Assembly: GCA_023137195.1 (NCBI GenBank)
Contig: JAGLPV010000010.1
Span: 15,383 to 79,382, forward strand
DNA: 64,000 nt
Reading direction: 5' to 3'
DNA from: Candidatus Aenigmatarchaeota archaeon
GTDB taxonomy: Archaea; EX4484-52
Shown here: one piece after another, positions 9,245 to 59,028 of the stretch
How positions within the stretch are numbered: position 1 is the first letter of the stretch
Layout of the letters: each line of letters opens with the position of its first letter
Translations under genes and position numbers: made by a program
The notes under the pieces: model-generated
The model's database searches: none
What the model was told of the DNA's origin: nothing
What the model saw: the letters and a program-made list of their open reading frames with translations, nothing else

Positions 9245-9438
9245 AATCTCAAATAGAAGAATACAATAAAAAAGCTTATAAATGTTTGTCTCGCCATGAA
9301 TCTGGTAAACTATGGGTTTGGTGCCGGATTTGGGGTTTCTTTGGAAAATATAGGACTTTCTTTGTTTGATGTTTGGTTGTTTGGATTGTAAGGTAGAATG
9401 TCTTGGCAAAAATTAAATTTTGTAGTCTTATAAAATTT

Positions 9439-9600
9439 TTACGCTTACGCATATTTTCTGCAGTCTTACAAAATTTACGTGCAGAAAATAACCATGAAAA
9501 TCGCTGGGCTTACATAATTTACCGCGCTTTTCAAGGTGTTTTGGTGCTCACTGCGGAATTTGCTCTTATGGGGCAAATTCCTTTGTTCACTACCGAAACA
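9439..9600 (-). ncRNA. tRNA-trailing structured element, copy 1 (directly 3' of tRNA-Glu)
   Basis: Clearly similar to 54389-54561 and 58784-58951; stems UGUUUCGGU/ACCAAAACA, GGAAUUUGC/GCAAAUUCC, UAUUUUCUGCA/UGCAGAAAAUA; ends GCGUAAGCGUAA. The repeat is seen directly; RNA status is inferred. Confidence 0.7.
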
Positions 9601-9693
9601 TGCTCCCGCCGGGATTCGAACCCGAGTCCCTGGCTTTCTTTTAAAATATTTATTGAAAGGCCAGTATCCTTGGCCGGTCTAGACTACAGGAGC
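9601..9693 (-). tRNA. tRNA-Glu(TTC) with 18-nt intron at 37/38 (9636-9653)
   Basis: GCTCCTG/CGGGAGC acceptor; CTGGC-CTTTCA[ATAAATATTTTAAAAGAA]A-GCCAG; canonical BHB with CUUU/AAAG helix and CAA/AAA bulges. Confidence 0.96.
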
Positions 9694-53504: not shown

Positions 53505-54251
53505 ATGAGCGACAAAGAAAAAATTGTAGAAACAGAAAAAGAAGTTGAGACTAAAACAGATTCCACTACAGAAATCAAAGAAGAAACAAAAAAAAATAGT
53601 GATTCTTTGAATAAAGAAGATAGCCAGTTGGATGAAAAAACAAAAACACTATTTGTTAACCAGGATATGTACTTAGCTTCAGGAATTTATATAGGAATGA
53701 GCAGAAAATTAAAAATAATGATGCCATTTATCTACAAGATAAGATCTGATGGATTATGCATATTTGATTTAAAAAAAATAGAAAAAAGAATACAATTACT
53801 TGTTAAATGGCTTTCAAGATACCAGCCAAATGAAATTTTAATAGTAAGCAGGAAAAAAAACGGTCACAAAGCAGTCGCTACCGTAGGAAAAGCAATAGGA
53901 GCAAAAACAGTCTATGGAAGATTCATGCCAGGAATGCTTTCAAACCCGGCATACAAAGGATATATTGAACCAAAAATTCTTATCGCATGCGACCCTTATG
54001 GAGACAAACAGGCAATAGAAGAAGCATACAAGATAAAAATCCCGGTAGTTTGTCTATGCGACACATATAATTTCCCACGTCTGGTAGATTTTGTTATTCC
54101 ATTAAATAACAAAGGAAGAAAATCAATAGCACTATTTTACTACATCCTTGCCAAGGAATTGTTAAAAGAAAACAAGACCATAAACGGCGATGCAGAATTC
54201 AAATACACTCCTGAAGACTTTGAGATGACTGCTGAAGATACGAAGTTATAA
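53505..54251 (+). CDS. rps2: 30S ribosomal protein S2
   Basis: YLASGIYIG..IYKIRSDGL; GRFMPG.L.NP; IP.NNKGRKS. Confidence 0.96.
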   Translation: MSDKEKIVETEKEVETKTDSTTEIKEETKKNSDSLNKEDSQLDEKTKTLFVNQDMYLASGIYIGMSRKLKIMMPFIYKIRSDGLCIFDLKKIEKRIQLLVKWLSRYQPNEILIVSRKKNGHKAVATVGKAIGAKTVYGRFMPGMLSNPAYKGYIEPKILIACDPYGDKQAIEEAYKIKIPVVCLCDTYNFPRLVDFVIPLNNKGRKSIALFYYILAKELLKENKTINGDAEFKYTPEDFEMTAEDTKL

Positions 54252-54279
54252 AAACTTTTTTATTCTCATATAATCATTT

Positions 54280-54388
54280 GCCTTGATAGCTCAGTTGGTA
54301 GAGCGCGTGACTTGTATGCGCGAAACTCGTATGCGTGAAAACACTCCAGGAAATCACGCGGTCGGGGGTTCAAATCCCTCTCAAGGCT
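54280..54388 (+). tRNA. tRNA-Thr(TGT) with 36-nt intron at 37/38 (54317-54352)
   Basis: GCCTTGA/TCAAGGC acceptor; CGTGA-CTTGTA[intron]A-TCACG; BHB-like CUUG/CAGG helix with UAU and AAA bulges. Confidence 0.93.
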
Positions 54389-54561
54389 TAATTGGATAGT
54401 AAACAAAGGAATTCGCCGTCTTTCTCGTAAGGAGAGCGAATTCCGCAGTGAGCATCCAATTACCTTGAAAAGCGCGGTATTTAGCGTAAGCCCAGCGATT
54501 TTCATGGTTTTTTTCTGCATGTAATTTTCGTAGGACTGCAGAAAAAAGGCGTAAGCGTAAG
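54389..54561 (+). ncRNA. tRNA-trailing structured element, copy 2 (directly 3' of tRNA-Thr)
   Basis: UAAUUGGAU/AUCCAAUUA, GGAAUUCGC/GCGAAUUCC, UGAAAA/UUUUCA, UUUUUUCUGCA/UGCAGAAAAAA; GCGUAAGCGUAAG end. Confidence 0.7.
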
Positions 54562-54758
54562 AACACGCAATGAATCCTTATTAACCTCAAAAAGCATGGT
54601 ATTTTTCGTAAATCCAGTAATTTTAAACCCACATATCTTATCTAAAAAGAAAATTTATATTCTATTCGCCTACGCCAATCCATAAAGTAAAGTATATAAA
54701 GATTATCTTACAATTTTAATATGTATTATAAGTTTAAAACTAAAAAAGTAGATTTAAT

Positions 54759-55235
54759 ATGAGTGCGGAAAAAACTGAAAATGAAACATCAAATAGTTTA
54801 AAATGGATTGCTGTACTAATTTTATTATTTCTTATTTTTGTGCCCACAGAAATAAGCTATCAAGTGTCAGAACCAACACAGGTACAATATCCGATTTCAT
54901 ATAAAGTGCAAAATGCATATAATACAGGGAGTCTTTCAGGATTTAATTGGGTTACAGAGGGTATTGTAGAAATAGAAAATACAGATACCGTACCGGGAAC
55001 TTTTAGCGTAAGTTGTAATTTTAAAACATTAAAGAGAACTCTTACAGATAGTAAAAAGGTATATATTGTACCTGGAGAGAGAAAGACTGCGGAGTGTTTA
55101 GCTGACACGGATTTTGGTGAGGATGTGGAATTCACTTATGCAATTAATCCCGGAACAAAAACCATAACAGAAGTCAGAACCATTACTAAACAAAAAACAG
55201 TACGTATTTATCAAAAGGTGCTTGGCTTATATTAA
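54759..55235 (+). CDS. Membrane-anchored beta-rich hypothetical protein
   Basis: N-terminal TM; Ig-like V.IENTD..PGTF.V segment. Confidence 0.7.
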   Translation: MSAEKTENETSNSLKWIAVLILLFLIFVPTEISYQVSEPTQVQYPISYKVQNAYNTGSLSGFNWVTEGIVEIENTDTVPGTFSVSCNFKTLKRTLTDSKKVYIVPGERKTAECLADTDFGEDVEFTYAINPGTKTITEVRTITKQKTVRIYQKVLGLY

Positions 55236-55257
55236 TTATAGTAATAAAAGATAGCTA

Positions 55258-55770
55258 ATGTACCCAACAATATGTTCTATTAAGGGGATTCTAAACAAAA
55301 TGCTTATGAAATTTAAAATAAAAAGATACTACAAACTATTCCTTGTGTTGGTATTACTTGTTTTTATCTCTGGTTGTGTAGAAGTAAAGCAACCAACAGT
55401 TACTGGATCTGCAACAATTAAACACATAAACATTGAGTATGACTTAGATATACTCCTTACAAATCCAAATAATTTTGATTTCACAGTAACTGACATCTCA
55501 ATAGTTTTACAAAGAGAAAATGGCGAAAATATAGGTATGGGTACAATTTTAGGAGGGATAATTTCAAAGCAGGATTCAAAGCATTTCTATGGTGTATTGA
55601 GACTGGAAGATTCAATTTTAATAGCTCAATATGACGAAACGGTTTACCTAATAATTGAGACAACAGCAAAGGGCGGGATTTGGCCCATAGAAAAGAAAGA
55701 GAAAATTTATAGAAAAATTAAGATGAACAATCCAATTAAAGGTAAAACAGAATTAGAAATAAATATTTAA
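55258..55770 (+). CDS. LEA_2/Ig-like lipoprotein (start uncertain)
   Basis: Lipobox FISGC; L.NPN.F...V.DI motif. Confidence 0.65.
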   Translation: MYPTICSIKGILNKMLMKFKIKRYYKLFLVLVLLVFISGCVEVKQPTVTGSATIKHINIEYDLDILLTNPNNFDFTVTDISIVLQRENGENIGMGTILGGIISKQDSKHFYGVLRLEDSILIAQYDETVYLIIETTAKGGIWPIEKKEKIYRKIKMNNPIKGKTELEINI

Positions 55771-56047
55771 TTTTCTTACTGACATTAGAAAGCAGAATTA
55801 TGATACTTTAACTAATCAACGACGGGCTACGGCGGACTCTTCGTCACTCGCTTCATCATATTTCCAATAAGAATAGAACAACAAATATACGACTTCGCTA
55901 TGCTCCATTCAAATTCGTCTGCGGAACTTAGTATATCTCCATTTCACCCCTCCAAAAACAACAATGCAAATCCCCCTCTCAATATATAACATTTAAAAAA
56001 GATACTCCTCTTTATTACAATACAATTAACTATCAAAAGTGATTATC

Positions 56048-56572
56048 ATGGGATTAAGACCTGCAAGAATATACAGAAACATGGACAATAAAAGACCTTA
56101 CACTAGAAGAGCCATTAAAGTCCATAAAAAAAACTACATCAAAGGAGTACCAGGAATGAAATTAAAATTATTTGAAATGGGTGTCAAAAAAGATTACAAT
56201 ACATGCCTGTCCTTATACATAAAAAACAACGCACAGATAAGACACAACGCATTAGAAGCAGCAAGGGTTGCCTCAAATTCATACATCAAAAAGAACACAA
56301 ATTTCTTTTTCTTAAAAGTAATGGTCTTCCCACACCACATATTAAGAGAACACGCTCAGGCAGCTATCGCTCAGGCAGACCGTTTCTATCAGGGAATGGC
56401 GCATCCATTCGGAAAGCCAAAATCAACAGCAGCAAGAGTTAGGTCCCACAAAGCAGTAATTAAACTCTATGTATACAAAGAAAATATAGAAGACGCAAAA
56501 ATTGCATTAAAACGAGCAGGAATGAAGCTACCCGCATCAACAAGAATAACTGTAGACGATATAGCCCTGTAG
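56048..56572 (+). CDS. rpl10e: 50S ribosomal protein L10e (uL16)
   Basis: MGLRPARIYR; QIRHNALEAARV; FPHHILRE; ADR...GM..FGKP...AARV. Confidence 0.97.
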   Translation: MGLRPARIYRNMDNKRPYTRRAIKVHKKNYIKGVPGMKLKLFEMGVKKDYNTCLSLYIKNNAQIRHNALEAARVASNSYIKKNTNFFFLKVMVFPHHILREHAQAAIAQADRFYQGMAHPFGKPKSTAARVRSHKAVIKLYVYKENIEDAKIALKRAGMKLPASTRITVDDIAL

Positions 56573-58676: not shown

Positions 58677-58760
58677 GTTGAGATCGCATAGCTCGGTATT
58701 GCGCCAGCCTGGAAAGCTGGTGGGTTTCGACCCTCGAGGGTTCAAATCCCTCTCTCAACG
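58677..58760 (+). tRNA. tRNA-Ser(GGA)
   Basis: GTTGAGA/TCTCAAC, discriminator G; CCAGC-CTGGAAA-GCTGG; long variable arm GGGT-TTCG-ACCC. Confidence 0.95.
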
Positions 58761-58951
58761 TTAAAAAGGAGTGAACAAAGGAATGTTTGGTGAGAGAACA
58801 AAGGAATTCGCCGTCTTCTCGTAAGGAGAGCAAATTCCGCAGTGAACCATCAAACACCTTAAAAAGCAAAGTAACACCTGTAAGACTTGATTTTTATGGT
58901 TTTTTTTCTGCGTATTTCTTGTAAGATGCAGAAAAAAGTCGTAAGCGTAAG
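58761..58951 (+). ncRNA. tRNA-trailing structured element, copy 3 (3' of tRNA-Ser), preceded by a partial duplicate of its 5' motif
   Basis: UGUUUGGUG/CAUCAAACA (58784-58792/58848-58856), GGAAUU/AAUUCC, UAAAAA/UUUUUA, UUUUCUGCGU/AUGCAGAAAA; CGUAAGCGUAAG end. Confidence 0.7.
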
Positions 58952-59028
58952 AAATAAGGAAGTTATGATAACCTCCTGTATTAGCGGTTATACGTAAATC
59001 TTGTTAAATTCAATCTGGTTTTTGACGC

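Follow-up and report, generated by a model that had tools for sequence, protein, structure and literature searches.

The window, a stretch of 64,000 nucleotides from contig JAGLPV010000010.1 of a Candidatus Aenigmatarchaeota archaeon, carries three tRNA genes that are each followed by a copy of the same structured element. Copies were scored with R1, a covariance model of the element built in the present analysis. The tRNA genes and the element copies of the window are:

54280..54388, + strand: tRNA-Thr(UGU) with a 38-nt intron (Rfam RF00005, 60.1 bits, model positions 1-71); discriminator T54388, CCA not encoded
54389..54564, + strand: element copy 1, a full-length tRNA trailer (R1 195.1 bits, model positions 1-174)
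54566..54640, + strand: degenerate, 5'-truncated second copy, a remnant of J2/1, the P1 3' arm and P3 (by eye against the consensus)
58677..58760, + strand: tRNA-Ser(GGA) (Rfam, 56.7 bits)
58761..58783, + strand: 23-nt 5' fragment of another copy, P1 type TTAAAAAGG, between tRNA-Ser and copy 3 (comparison with the consensus)
58784..58954, + strand: element copy 3 (R1 143.7 bits, model positions 1-174)
9601..9693, - strand: tRNA-Glu(UUC) with an intron (Rfam, 47.5 bits; ARAGORN in intron mode); discriminator 9601, without CCA
9435..9600, - strand: element copy 2, its first base adjoining the discriminator (R1 187.1 bits, model positions 1-174)

ARAGORN missed both tRNA-Thr and tRNA-Glu when run without its intron mode, and in intron mode it mistyped tRNA-Thr(UGU) as Ser(tga). 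R1 did not score the remnant at 54566..54640 at E <= 1. The first-pass annotation had described two copies of the element, those behind tRNA-Thr and tRNA-Glu; both are real, but the third window copy (58784-58954) and a family of about 20 copies per genome had been overlooked. Its placement of the P1 stem was borne out: in the Thr copy, P1 begins at the first base past T54388, with TAATTGGAT (54389-54397) the exact reverse complement of ATCCAATTA (54454-54462; 9/9 pairs), and in the Glu copy it begins at 9600, directly past discriminator 9601, with 8/9 pairs and one C.A. CCA is likewise absent from both tRNA genes, as had been noted, with TAA and TGT directly past the discriminators. The Thr and Glu copies can be aligned from the first base after the tRNA through the tail GCGTAAGCGTAA and diverge further 3'. 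A search of the window against Rfam returned only tRNA at gathering scores, and positions 54250-54700 gave only noise at E <= 10; no known sRNA class (C/D box, H/ACA, miRNA precursor) or self-cleaving ribozyme family (HDV-like, hatchet, twister and others) was matched in Rfam. Coding on the minus strand, where ORFs of 84 and 83 amino acids run across the element, was ruled out by P2 indels of 1, 2, 10, 11 and 13 nt among copies.

Fold and sequence motif of the element

The conserved element, as seen in copy 1, consists of a first domain, two hairpins and a tail:

54389..54462, + strand: domain 1, with P1 (54389-54397/54454-54462), an inner helix and P2 (54408-54416/54436-54444)
54463..54507, + strand: P3 hairpin CCTTGAAAAGCGCGG...CCAGCGATTTTCATGG, loop with GTA-N6-GTAAG; the sequence-invariant core of the family
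54508..54547, + strand: P4 hairpin, loop with GTA-N6-GTAGG; a T7 run at the start of the 5' arm and an A run at the end of the 3' arm
54548..54561, + strand: single-stranded tail GGCGTAAGCGTAAG, the 3' border of the conserved element

The inner helix of domain 1 includes a tandem purine-purine (G.A-type) step, and P2 is capped by a loop containing CGTAAGG. In an alignment of 14 copies, similarity is lost directly past the tail. The four helices comprise 46 pairs, with 98.6% of cells paired in the 14 copies compared with 86.3% in shuffles and only 36-51% in slid controls. Both-sided changes are present at 19 of the 46 pairs, at a covariation score matched by 0 of 500 shuffles, and these changes are spread over helix 1 (10/12 pairs), helix 2 (4/9) and P4 (5/11); in P3, 13 of 14 pairs never vary among the 14 copies. 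The sense strand of copy 1 folds with a minimum free energy of -58.2 kcal/mol (z -4.53) and the antisense strand with -49.6. The ratio of G.U to A.C within pairs is 12:7 and 19:6. We considered whether the tandem G.A step (columns 13-14/62-63) marks a kink-turn, that is, an L7Ae-binding RNA. The kink-turn consensus has tandem G.A pairs next to a 3-nt bulge; the step in the element has Watson-Crick pairs on both sides and only a 1-nt bulge, two pairs off, and this assignment was rejected by eye against that consensus.

The recurrence of GUA(A/G)G that had been reported from the two copies is real, with five occurrences in the Thr copy and three in the Glu copy against approximately 0.4 per copy in composition-matched shuffles. 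Across the 14 copies GTARG has 51 sense-strand occurrences, three to five in each copy, against none in antisense, and the sites are confined to loops or the tail, the loops of P2, P3 and P4 carrying GTA-N6-GTARG. The covarying fold and the strand-specific motif point to an RNA that would be made from the sense strand. Over the whole genome, GTA-N6-GTARG occurs at 98 sites (neighbouring spacings, 17-39), which is not above mononucleotide shuffles (77-106), and GTA-Nx-GTARG spacings of 3, 9 and 12 likewise peak. Of the 75 motif sites outside the element, 32 have flanking stems of >=5 bp, and other hairpin repeat families share the GTA-N6-GTAAG loop.

Distribution at tRNA genes in two genera

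In the genome as a whole, 19 of 39 tRNA matches are followed by the element from the very next base; 16 of these copies are full, one (at tRNA-Met) is split by an insertion sequence and continued on another contig, and two consist of domain 1 only. Chance is excluded by the R1 scores, by these 19 adjoining elements and by the covariation. Two congeners carry the element at gap 0 behind 6 of 24 and 5 of 29 tRNAs, both counts being lower bounds, and at every tRNA-linked copy in the genus the gap to the discriminator is 0 bases. All 30 tRNA-adjacent copies counted (19 + 6 + 5) are in the sense of the tRNA. Occupancy is kept in three species of the genus; genomes within one genus are kin, and their rows are not independent events. 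Assemblies break at tRNA genes through the repeat, with 7 of 20 BLAST matches lying no more than approximately 700 bases from a contig end. Three further DNA samples, all from a single study, gave contigs that bridge the junction between tRNA and element, which is therefore not an assembly artefact. Four DNA runs yielded no credible empty-site joint; a lone 825-nt skip has a 22-nt side and probably reflects the tRNA of another organism.

A further congener (G002) has none of its 25 tRNAs occupied, and the element is therefore dispensable. Upstream of tRNA-Thr and tRNA-Glu the flanks show synteny with this congener; the downstream flanks could not be aligned to it. A T at +1 cannot be assigned to the element, because 22 of the 25 empty sites in G002 have it too. 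The copies are mosaics: domain 1, P3 and P4 plus tail cluster discordantly, such that the Ala and Gly_C55 copies are 97% identical in domain 1 and 65% in P4 plus tail, and truncated tandem remnants are present among them.

The sister genus g11 places the element on both sides of its tRNA genes. There, 26 units follow the discriminator at gap 0, and 26 inverted units lie on the other strand, 0-2 nt before tRNA +1 (20 of them at exactly 1 nt) and at approximately 10 distinct tRNA species, 3 of these 26 rows resting on tRNA matches under the gathering score (28.4-28.5 bits). Inverted units point away from the tRNA 5' end, so that the tRNA promoter cannot drive them, and since they make up half of the tRNA-adjacent units, co-transcription cannot explain the placement of the family in general. 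An A/T-rich P1, TTTTTAATG, is found in 14 of the 26 inverted units versus none of the 26 3'-sense units, and T5 stands directly past the discriminator in 5 of the latter. The core (domain 1 and P3) is kept in the sister genus, with the arms of the P3 stem conserved apart from one C-G versus U.U exchange, but the GUAAG loops, P4 and the tail are missing. Orthologous tRNAs of four g11 species keep their occupancy, which fits stable inheritance and gene conversion as well as active homing. No shortage of acceptor-stem G.U, which would be expected if an antisense fold must pair perfectly, was seen in the small sample of tRNAs with inverted units.

Full units are patchy, being found in 2 of 13 genera; seven genomes of the set bear the element, and 30 gave no match at all. 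P3-like hairpins in two further genera gave 11 weak R2 matches in 4 genomes, and none of the 4 loci fetched had a tRNA match. A pattern scan of the genome collection returned 9 stretches, 7 on MAGs labelled 'Candidatus Nanohalarchaeota archaeon' and 2 that look like chance bacterial matches. The P3 pattern gave at least 120 stretches in metagenomes; R1, applied to 80 of these, recovered only 3 loci on two contigs of one metagenome, and no new lineage was seen among the 80. Viral contigs gave 5 pattern matches and no R1 match. We also inspected six tRNA introns as possible relatives of the element and saw no similarity.

Proposed transcription, release and origin of the element

The genome encodes an RNase Z (TIGR02651, 332.9 bits against a cut-off of 292.95; G000:C9:534-1427) and an archaeal CCA-adding enzyme (TIGR03671, 390 bits). 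The tRNA and the element adjoin without space for a terminator or a promoter, which makes co-transcription from the tRNA promoter most likely. RNase Z would then remove the trailer, and the RNA so released would begin with a 5' U that is locked, together with the next eight bases, in P1, followed by the invariant P3, P4 and the GUAAG-rich tail. The T runs of 4-8 that open P4 could also end transcription inside the element. The earlier proposal of a tRNA-ncRNA dicistron thus survives in part: the zero gap, the missing CCA, the genes for RNase Z and the CCA-adding enzyme, the fold and the sense-strand motif all speak for it, but the element is a mosaic repeat family found after half of the tRNAs, missing in a congener and, in the sister genus, also present in inverted form before tRNA genes. 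Because of this half occupancy, the exchange of modules, the congener without the element and the mirror copies of g11, the element is not a conventional single host sRNA gene.

We favour, with moderate confidence, a structured modular element that homes to tRNA ends, is here co-transcribed as a trailer and is probably released by RNase Z. The 173 bases would be one copy of a family living at tRNA-gene ends, for which the tRNA would serve as promoter and processing handle. From the mirror position in g11, the occupancy of half of the tRNAs, the mosaicism and the absence from a congener, we read its position as one that would be set by a tRNA-shaped fold, the ruler that RNase Z uses. A more specific proposal, which we regard as speculative and rather doubtful, is a homing element of a new kind, which would recognise its landing site by the shape of RNA or single-stranded DNA and not by sequence and would join its 5' end to whatever is found one base past an acceptor stem of tRNA type, whichever the strand. 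Among known mobile elements it would be the first to integrate at a site of tRNA processing. The target would then be the position at which RNase Z cuts a tRNA or the mirror fold of its antisense strand, and spread might proceed through re-joined RNase Z products, or through a structure-specific nick at folded tDNA, and then copying into the genome.

Other explanations were weighed against this homing element. A DNA-level selfish repeat in the manner of MITEs, REPs or BIMEs, for which a DNA enzyme would recognise folded single-stranded tDNA on either strand and the transcript would be a by-product, would account for the mirror-symmetric placement on both strands in g11, the mosaics of modules, the GTA-N6-GTAAG loop common to other hairpin repeat families of the genome, the patchy distribution over genera and the fact that both strands fold well. 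We nevertheless consider it unlikely. No match to the Y1_Tnp/RAYT transposase PF01797 or to the reverse transcriptase RVT_1 PF00078, the latter sought as the mark of a SINE or non-autonomous retroelement, was found in this genome (84.78% complete, so that absence is not proven), and no transposase, integrase signature or reverse transcriptase was linked to the element. The inverted repeats and flanking direct repeats of a MITE are missing: P1 closes domain 1 only, the 3' end is a single-stranded tail and no target duplication was found. Nor is the tRNA end duplicated as at the att site of an integrase-borne island, shared words within 450 nt downstream being at most 7 nt at 16 of 16 loci. The uniform tRNA-sense orientation of all 30 copies in the present genus, the strand-specific motif and the G.U bias are not predicted by a strand-neutral DNA element.

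That motif could instead speak for a host-beneficial ncRNA of approximately 170 nt, a scaffold or sponge for a GUA(A/G)G-binding protein, with the tRNA as no more than promoter and RNase Z handle and the number of copies raising the dose. GTARG recurs three to five times per copy on the sense strand only and always in loops or the tail, compensatory change conserves the structure, and three species of the genus retain occupancy. Yet the RNA is dispensable, given the congener without the element at all 25 tRNAs found, inverted copies before tRNA genes cannot be produced with the tRNA as promoter and handle, and no candidate binding protein was identified. Since the sister genus keeps domain 1 and P3 without the GUAAG loops, P4 and tail, the motif is limited to the present genus, and a multivalent GUAAG-binding scaffold, as suggested in the first-pass annotation, cannot be the basic function of the family; we doubt that such an ncRNA explains the element. 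A cis-acting accessory module of the tRNA gene appears improbable. As a trailer, or on the leader side in the sister genus, its role would be to stop or insulate tRNA transcription, to protect the end of the pre-tRNA or to provide a promoter, and there is a T run after P3 in both genera, P4 presents a T-run/stem/A-run on both strands that resembles a two-way oligo-T stop, and the P1 of inverted g11 units described above would place a TATA-like word approximately 70 nt upstream of the tRNA. A palindromic motif behind about half of the tRNAs of Methanopyrus kandleri, a suggested 3'-maturation signal in the available part of PMC5217627, provides a precedent. Against such a module, it is missing from half of the tRNAs in this genome and from all 25 found in G002, the P4 T run varies from 4 to 8 with 5 of 16 full copies lacking T5 anywhere inside the element, a simple terminator scan, built for bacteria, found 0 sites at the locus, and 170 nt with four covarying helices far exceed what termination needs. 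The position of the T run as a conserved stop was rejected, as that position is not conserved. We judge it very improbable that the element is a ribozyme which cleaves itself at the 5' edge and so generates the tRNA 3' end independently of RNase Z, even though it starts exactly at the processing site and combines an invariant core, formed by P3 and the joining strands, with helices that covary: no Rfam ribozyme or other family was matched even at E <= 10, an RNase Z gene is present, and P1 is weak and A/U-rich with U as its first base, which differs from HDV-type sites. Self-cleavage leaves a cyclic phosphate, which would block CCA addition.

The element looks less like a single, ordinary small-RNA gene than like an undescribed element homing to tRNA ends; a search of full-text articles from outside the subscription journals gave no description of it. 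If the RNA is made and released as we infer, an archaeon with a minimal genome devotes a substantial part of its tRNA transcription to a single structured RNA encoded in about 20 copies, and this RNA would be either an abundant constituent of an RNP or a parasite that exploits the pathway of tRNA expression. Base-exact placement at both mature tRNA ends, on opposite strands and at more than 20 tRNA species, would be hard for a sequence-specific recombinase. The pattern raises the testable question of whether a tRNA-shaped fold or an RNase Z site can be a genetic insertion target.

Comparison with known systems

Several mobile elements target tRNA genes, among them integrative elements that use tRNA 3' ends as att sites and the retrotransposons Ty3 and Dictyostelium TRE. 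With these the element shares a tRNA gene as landing site that stays intact, but it has neither a duplicated tRNA end nor a link to an integrase or reverse transcriptase, and it lies base-exact at mature tRNA ends on either strand. The REP, BIME and REPIN sequences of bacteria with RAYT transposases are, like the element, made of short hairpin modules that vary in the stem and have one motif in common; both form numerous non-coding, intergenic mosaics. The element differs in that no Y1/RAYT gene was found, in its base-exact position at tRNA ends, in its strand-specific motif and in its constant orientation to the tRNA in the present genus. R2-type elements, which are freed from the host transcript by a 5' HDV-like ribozyme, follow the same logic, that of a parasite that lies in or behind a highly transcribed stable-RNA gene and has its 5' end precisely where it is cut out of the co-transcript. 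In the present case the cutting enzyme would be the host RNase Z, and the element has no coding capacity or ribozyme match.

Gammaherpesvirus tRNA-miRNA units are dicistrons released by RNase Z, and plants reportedly have tRNA-snoRNA dicistronic units, said to have been described by Kruszka in 2003. Like RNase Z-released tRNA-sRNA dicistrons, the element starts directly past the discriminator of a tRNA without encoded CCA, in a genome with an RNase Z gene, and the tRNA would provide promoter and 5' processing. An archaeal precedent is the Nanoarchaeum equitans tRNA-Val/sRNA8 unit, in which RNase Z generates the 5' end of a C/D sRNA that follows the tRNA, according to the available part of PMC3491384. 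That unit, as it appears there, and other tRNA-sRNA dicistrons are single genes of known guide-RNA classes, whereas the element has no C/D or other Rfam match and numbers about 20 mosaic copies, which follow half of the tRNAs; one congener is free of it, and the sister genus has mirror copies. A feature of similar distribution is the 18-nt palindromic motif of M. kandleri, which follows about half of the tRNA genes at a distance of approximately 10 bp and was suggested by the authors to be a 3'-maturation signal (PMC5217627, available part). Both are archaeal, lineage-specific palindromic features behind about half of the tRNA genes, but compared with that motif as given in the same part of the source (18 nt, approximately +10), the element is 170 nt long with four helices, begins at +1, and shows covariation, tandem remnants and antisense placements.

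Junctions between tRNA genes and the element

In the window, Rfam identifies five tRNA genes. Two carry introns (54280-54388, plus strand, and 9601-9693, minus strand), and both of these escaped ARAGORN in its default mode. The tRNA-element loci comprise the following features.

54280-54388, plus strand: tRNA-Thr(UGU) gene (Rfam), intron-bearing, discriminator T54388
54389-54564: full element copy behind tRNA-Thr
~54566-54640, 3' of the Thr copy: degenerate 5'-truncated element remnant, recognized by eye only and unscored by the covariance model
9601-9693, minus strand: tRNA-Glu(UUC) gene (Rfam), intron-bearing, discriminator at 9601
9435-9600: full element copy behind tRNA-Glu
58677-58760: tRNA-Ser(GGA) gene, followed by an element fragment and a full copy
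58761-58783: 23-nt 5' fragment of a different element sub-family, between tRNA-Ser(GGA) and the full copy
58784-58954: third full element copy in the window (143.7 bits), unlisted in the first-pass annotation

The first-pass annotation had placed the start of the outermost helix, P1, directly after the discriminator in the Thr and Glu copies. Behind tRNA-Thr, the nine nucleotides following T54388, TAATTGGAT (54389-54397), match exactly the reverse complement of 54454-54462, and the matching helix of the Glu copy begins at 9600 with 8 of 9 pairs formed. The bases 3' of the discriminators are TAA (Thr) and TGT (Glu) and, therefore, neither gene encodes CCA, as had been stated. The GUA(A/G)G motif reported to recur in the loops and 3' tail is present as GUA-N6-GUA(A/G)G in the loops of P2, P3, and P4 and twice as the motif word in the tail; the observation is correct in all details. 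Alignment of the Thr and Glu loci runs from the first post-tRNA base through the tail GCGTAAGCGTAA, with divergence beyond. Contigs from three further DNA samples (one study) span the tRNA-element junction without differences, which rules out an assembly artefact. The fragment at 58761-58783 gives the impression of a newer copy starting to enter at the tRNA end.

Run in intron mode, ARAGORN assigns 54280-54388 a 36-nt intron and the type Ser(tga); Thr(UGU) is indicated both by the Rfam alignment and by the orthologue in the element-free congener G002. Automatic typing of intron-bearing tRNAs of this kind is unreliable. The stretch from the element to tRNA-Gln(UUG) (54759-56572) encodes two small proteins of 158 and 170 aa, predicted to be membrane-located or secreted, and contains an ORF resembling ribosomal protein uL16/L10e, named by eye. 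In G002, tRNA-Gln lies 25 nt after tRNA-Thr, so the local gene order differs.

Across the organism's own assembly (1.42 Mb, 57 contigs, 84.78% complete), the 173-nt element used as a BLAST query gave 20 matches. We inspected the 200 nt behind each of 39 Rfam tRNA hits, and found the element from the very next base behind 19 of them, as a full copy in 16 cases (two with extra 5'-side material). Only domain 1 is kept behind tRNA-Ser(UGA) and tRNA-Cys, and the tRNA-Met copy reaches a contig end, split by an insertion sequence, and resumes at C43:~594. The break (C36:15704-15795, C43:580-694) lies inside the 5' arm of P3, with insertion ends CCTAAGTTTGACA and TGTCAAACTTAGG and the halves at two contig ends. 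Two element loci are without a visible tRNA link: C6:1-157, at a contig start, and C8:34972-35246, a decayed tandem pair 3' of a protein-coding region with no tRNA-like match upstream. This genome mixes CCA-encoding and CCA-less tRNA genes; CCA follows 4 of the 39 hits (3' ends C1:142499, C31:253, C14:47974, and C5:22532), none of which bears an element.

Fold, strand, and mosaic make-up

RNAalifold analysis of an alignment of 14 full copies (A2) gave four helices, arranged as follows.

P1: closes domain 1; followed by an inner helix with a tandem G.A step between Watson-Crick pairs
P2: hairpin within domain 1, loop length variable
P3: hairpin CCUUGAAAAGCGCGG...CCAGCGAUUUUCAUGG
P4: hairpin with a U run as 5' arm and an A run as 3' arm
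Tail: single-stranded, GUCGUAAGCGUAAG, at the end of the element

In a MAFFT alignment, pairs filled 98.6% of 642 cells versus 86.3% after shuffling, with two-sided changes at 19 pairs, and the covariation score was attained by 0 of 500 shuffles; the shuffle figures are not probabilities because copies of one genome are kin. The stronger argument for the fold comes from slid partners, of which 36-51% paired, together with the many distinct P1 sequences. Covarying pairs fall in P1 plus the inner helix (10/12), P2 (4/9), and P4 (5/11); 13 of the 14 pairs of P3 are invariant in this genus, so covariation says nothing either way on P3. A kink-turn was considered and rejected, the tandem G.A step being without the required 3-nt bulge. 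A protein-coding reading was likewise rejected, since the minus-strand ORFs that cross the element lack conservation: the indels between copies have lengths not divisible by three.

The 14 copies contain 51 GTARG words in sense and 0 in antisense (shuffles ∼0.4 per copy), G.U pairs outnumber A.C pairs (12:7 in A2 and 19:6 in a second alignment, A3), and the sense fold is the stabler (-58.2 versus -49.6 kcal/mol for antisense). Jointly, these features point modestly to a sense-strand RNA.

Among the 14 copies, three element parts cluster discordantly. Domain 1 is 96-97% identical between the Ala, C35, and Gly_C55 copies, and P4 plus tail of Gly_C55 is 65% identical to Ala/C35 and 85% to Leu_C9; the Thr, C45:43608, and Leu_C15 copies have identical P3 and differing domain 1 (52-66%). 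At orthologous tRNAs across species, P1 and P2 differ in sequence and keep their pairing. Fragments truncated at the 3' end adjoin the tRNA; remnants lacking the 5' part are found on the side of a full copy that faces away from it. Further hairpin repeat families, seemingly unrelated, are capped by the GTA-N6-GTARG loop too, and the element itself resembles a mosaic built from modules of this kind. Genome-wide there are 98 GTA-N6-GTARG sites, a count not above mononucleotide shuffles; 23 lie in tRNA-linked elements, and 32 of the 75 others are flanked by stems of at least 5 bp. Repeats with the GTA-N6-GTAAG loop on different stems occur at C14:19951-20043, C20:15585-16070, C45:53249-53341, C54:14389-14716, and elsewhere, some of them grouped in non-coding tracts several hundred bases long.

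Distribution and placement in related genomes

The 42 genomes searched for the order are identical to the 42 for the phylum. R1, a covariance model spanning the full element, matched 21 times in the own genome, 21 and 10 times in two congeners, and 0 times in the third, G002; all four genomes of g11, a sister genus in another family, were matched more weakly (E about 1e-8). A second model built from both genera and restricted to domain 1 and P3 (R2) found 26-30 units in each g11 genome and 11 weak matches in four genomes of two further genera. The four such loci fetched (g6 and g8, L223-L226) are stand-alone P3-like hairpins that share the arms of P3 (GCUUGAAAA...GAUUUUCAUGAUUUU) and lie away from tRNA genes, which suggests that P3 may be the older and more widespread module. 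In G002 (71% complete), 25 of 25 tRNA hits have ordinary A/T-rich flanks, and synteny with the own genome, at 74-77% identity, extends over the genes that precede tRNA-Thr and tRNA-Glu; the element is therefore dispensable and patchy in distribution. Since 22 of the 25 empty sites also begin with T, the T at +1 is not assignable to the element. A metagenome scan gave no new lineage among the matches listed.

The g11 unit consists of domain 1 and P3 (∼107 nt), frequently in tandem, without P4, tail, or GUAAG loops. The R2 matches listed were set against the tRNA hits from all four genomes (rows include orthologues), giving a sense class of at least 26 units directly behind the discriminator (gap 0) and on the tRNA strand, and an inverted class of at least 26 units on the opposite strand, 0-2 nt before tRNA +1 and pointing away from the gene, three rows of which rest on tRNA hits just below the gathering score (28.4-28.5 bits). 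Both kinds occur at at least five g11 tRNAs, and the 52 loci fetched (L228-L279) cover ∼10 distinct tRNA species for the inverted class and 12 for the sense class. Among the matches listed, spacing is exactly 1 nt in 20 of 26 inverted units, and the one-base spacer is a purine (A or G) in 24 of 26 rows. On the element strand the two classes are alike: a 7-bp acceptor-stem strand, one unpaired base, and the element. Every one of the 30 tRNA-adjacent copies counted in the own genus (19 + 6 + 5) belongs to the sense class. Inverted copies cannot be driven by a tRNA promoter, and a position behind such a promoter is therefore not the whole placement rule; judged from these positions, the rule appears to be one base past the end of a tRNA-shaped fold on either strand, which is the RNase Z cutting position. 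The P1 sub-family TTTTTAATG is found in 14/26 inverted versus 0/26 sense units, and TCTACRRYG in 11/26 sense versus 1/26 inverted units, a segregation that fits both context-specific function and conversion among like sites.

Processing, rival readings, and known systems

Genes for RNase Z (C9:534-1427; 332.9 bits, cut-off 292.95) and an archaeal CCA-adding enzyme (390 bits) are present in the genome. With a gap of zero, neither a terminator nor a promoter fits between the tRNA and the element, so co-transcription is the default expectation. The RNase Z gene, on the minus strand, precedes tRNA-Leu(UAG) by 9 nt; this tRNA is itself trailed by an element copy (269-442), and the presumed enzyme and one presumed substrate may therefore share a transcript (C9:269-1427).

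We favor, at about an even chance, an account in two layers. In its own organism the element would be a tRNA 3' trailer, co-transcribed with the tRNA and freed by RNase Z, its 5' end held paired in P1; the family would be a repeat that homes to, or is retained only at, the ends of tRNA-shaped folds, the tRNA serving it as promoter and processing handle. A hairpin repeat acting purely at the DNA level is unlikely: the mosaic make-up and the inverted g11 units are consistent with it, and the strandedness of the motif points modestly to RNA. Known classes of mobile element were also considered. The longest word of the tRNA 3' end shared downstream is ≤7 nt at 16 of 16 loci, and, with no second tRNA 3' end there, insertion of the integrase att type is rejected; terminal inverted repeats do not bound the element as a whole, the 84.78%-complete genome gave no matches for RVT_1 or a Y1 transposase, and the viral contigs scanned carry no element copies.

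A host scaffold for a GUAAG-binding protein, which the recurring loops would suit, is likewise improbable, the g11 units having no such loops and G002 no element. Still less probable is a cis-acting terminator, insulator, or promoter module; T runs of 4-8 do open P4, with a length that is not conserved and with T5 absent from 5 of 16 full copies. A ribozyme is very improbable; Rfam matched only tRNAs at the locus, with no ribozyme, C/D, or H/ACA family.

A full-text literature search found no published description of the element. The nearest published cases are a short palindromic motif that follows half of the Methanopyrus kandleri tRNA genes (PMC5217627) and a dicistron of Nanoarchaeum equitans, whose most abundant C/D sRNA lies directly 3' of tRNA-Val, with a 5' end that the author proposes to be made by RNase Z (PMC3491384). 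The latter provides an archaeal precedent for the tRNA-ncRNA mechanism put forward in the first-pass annotation.
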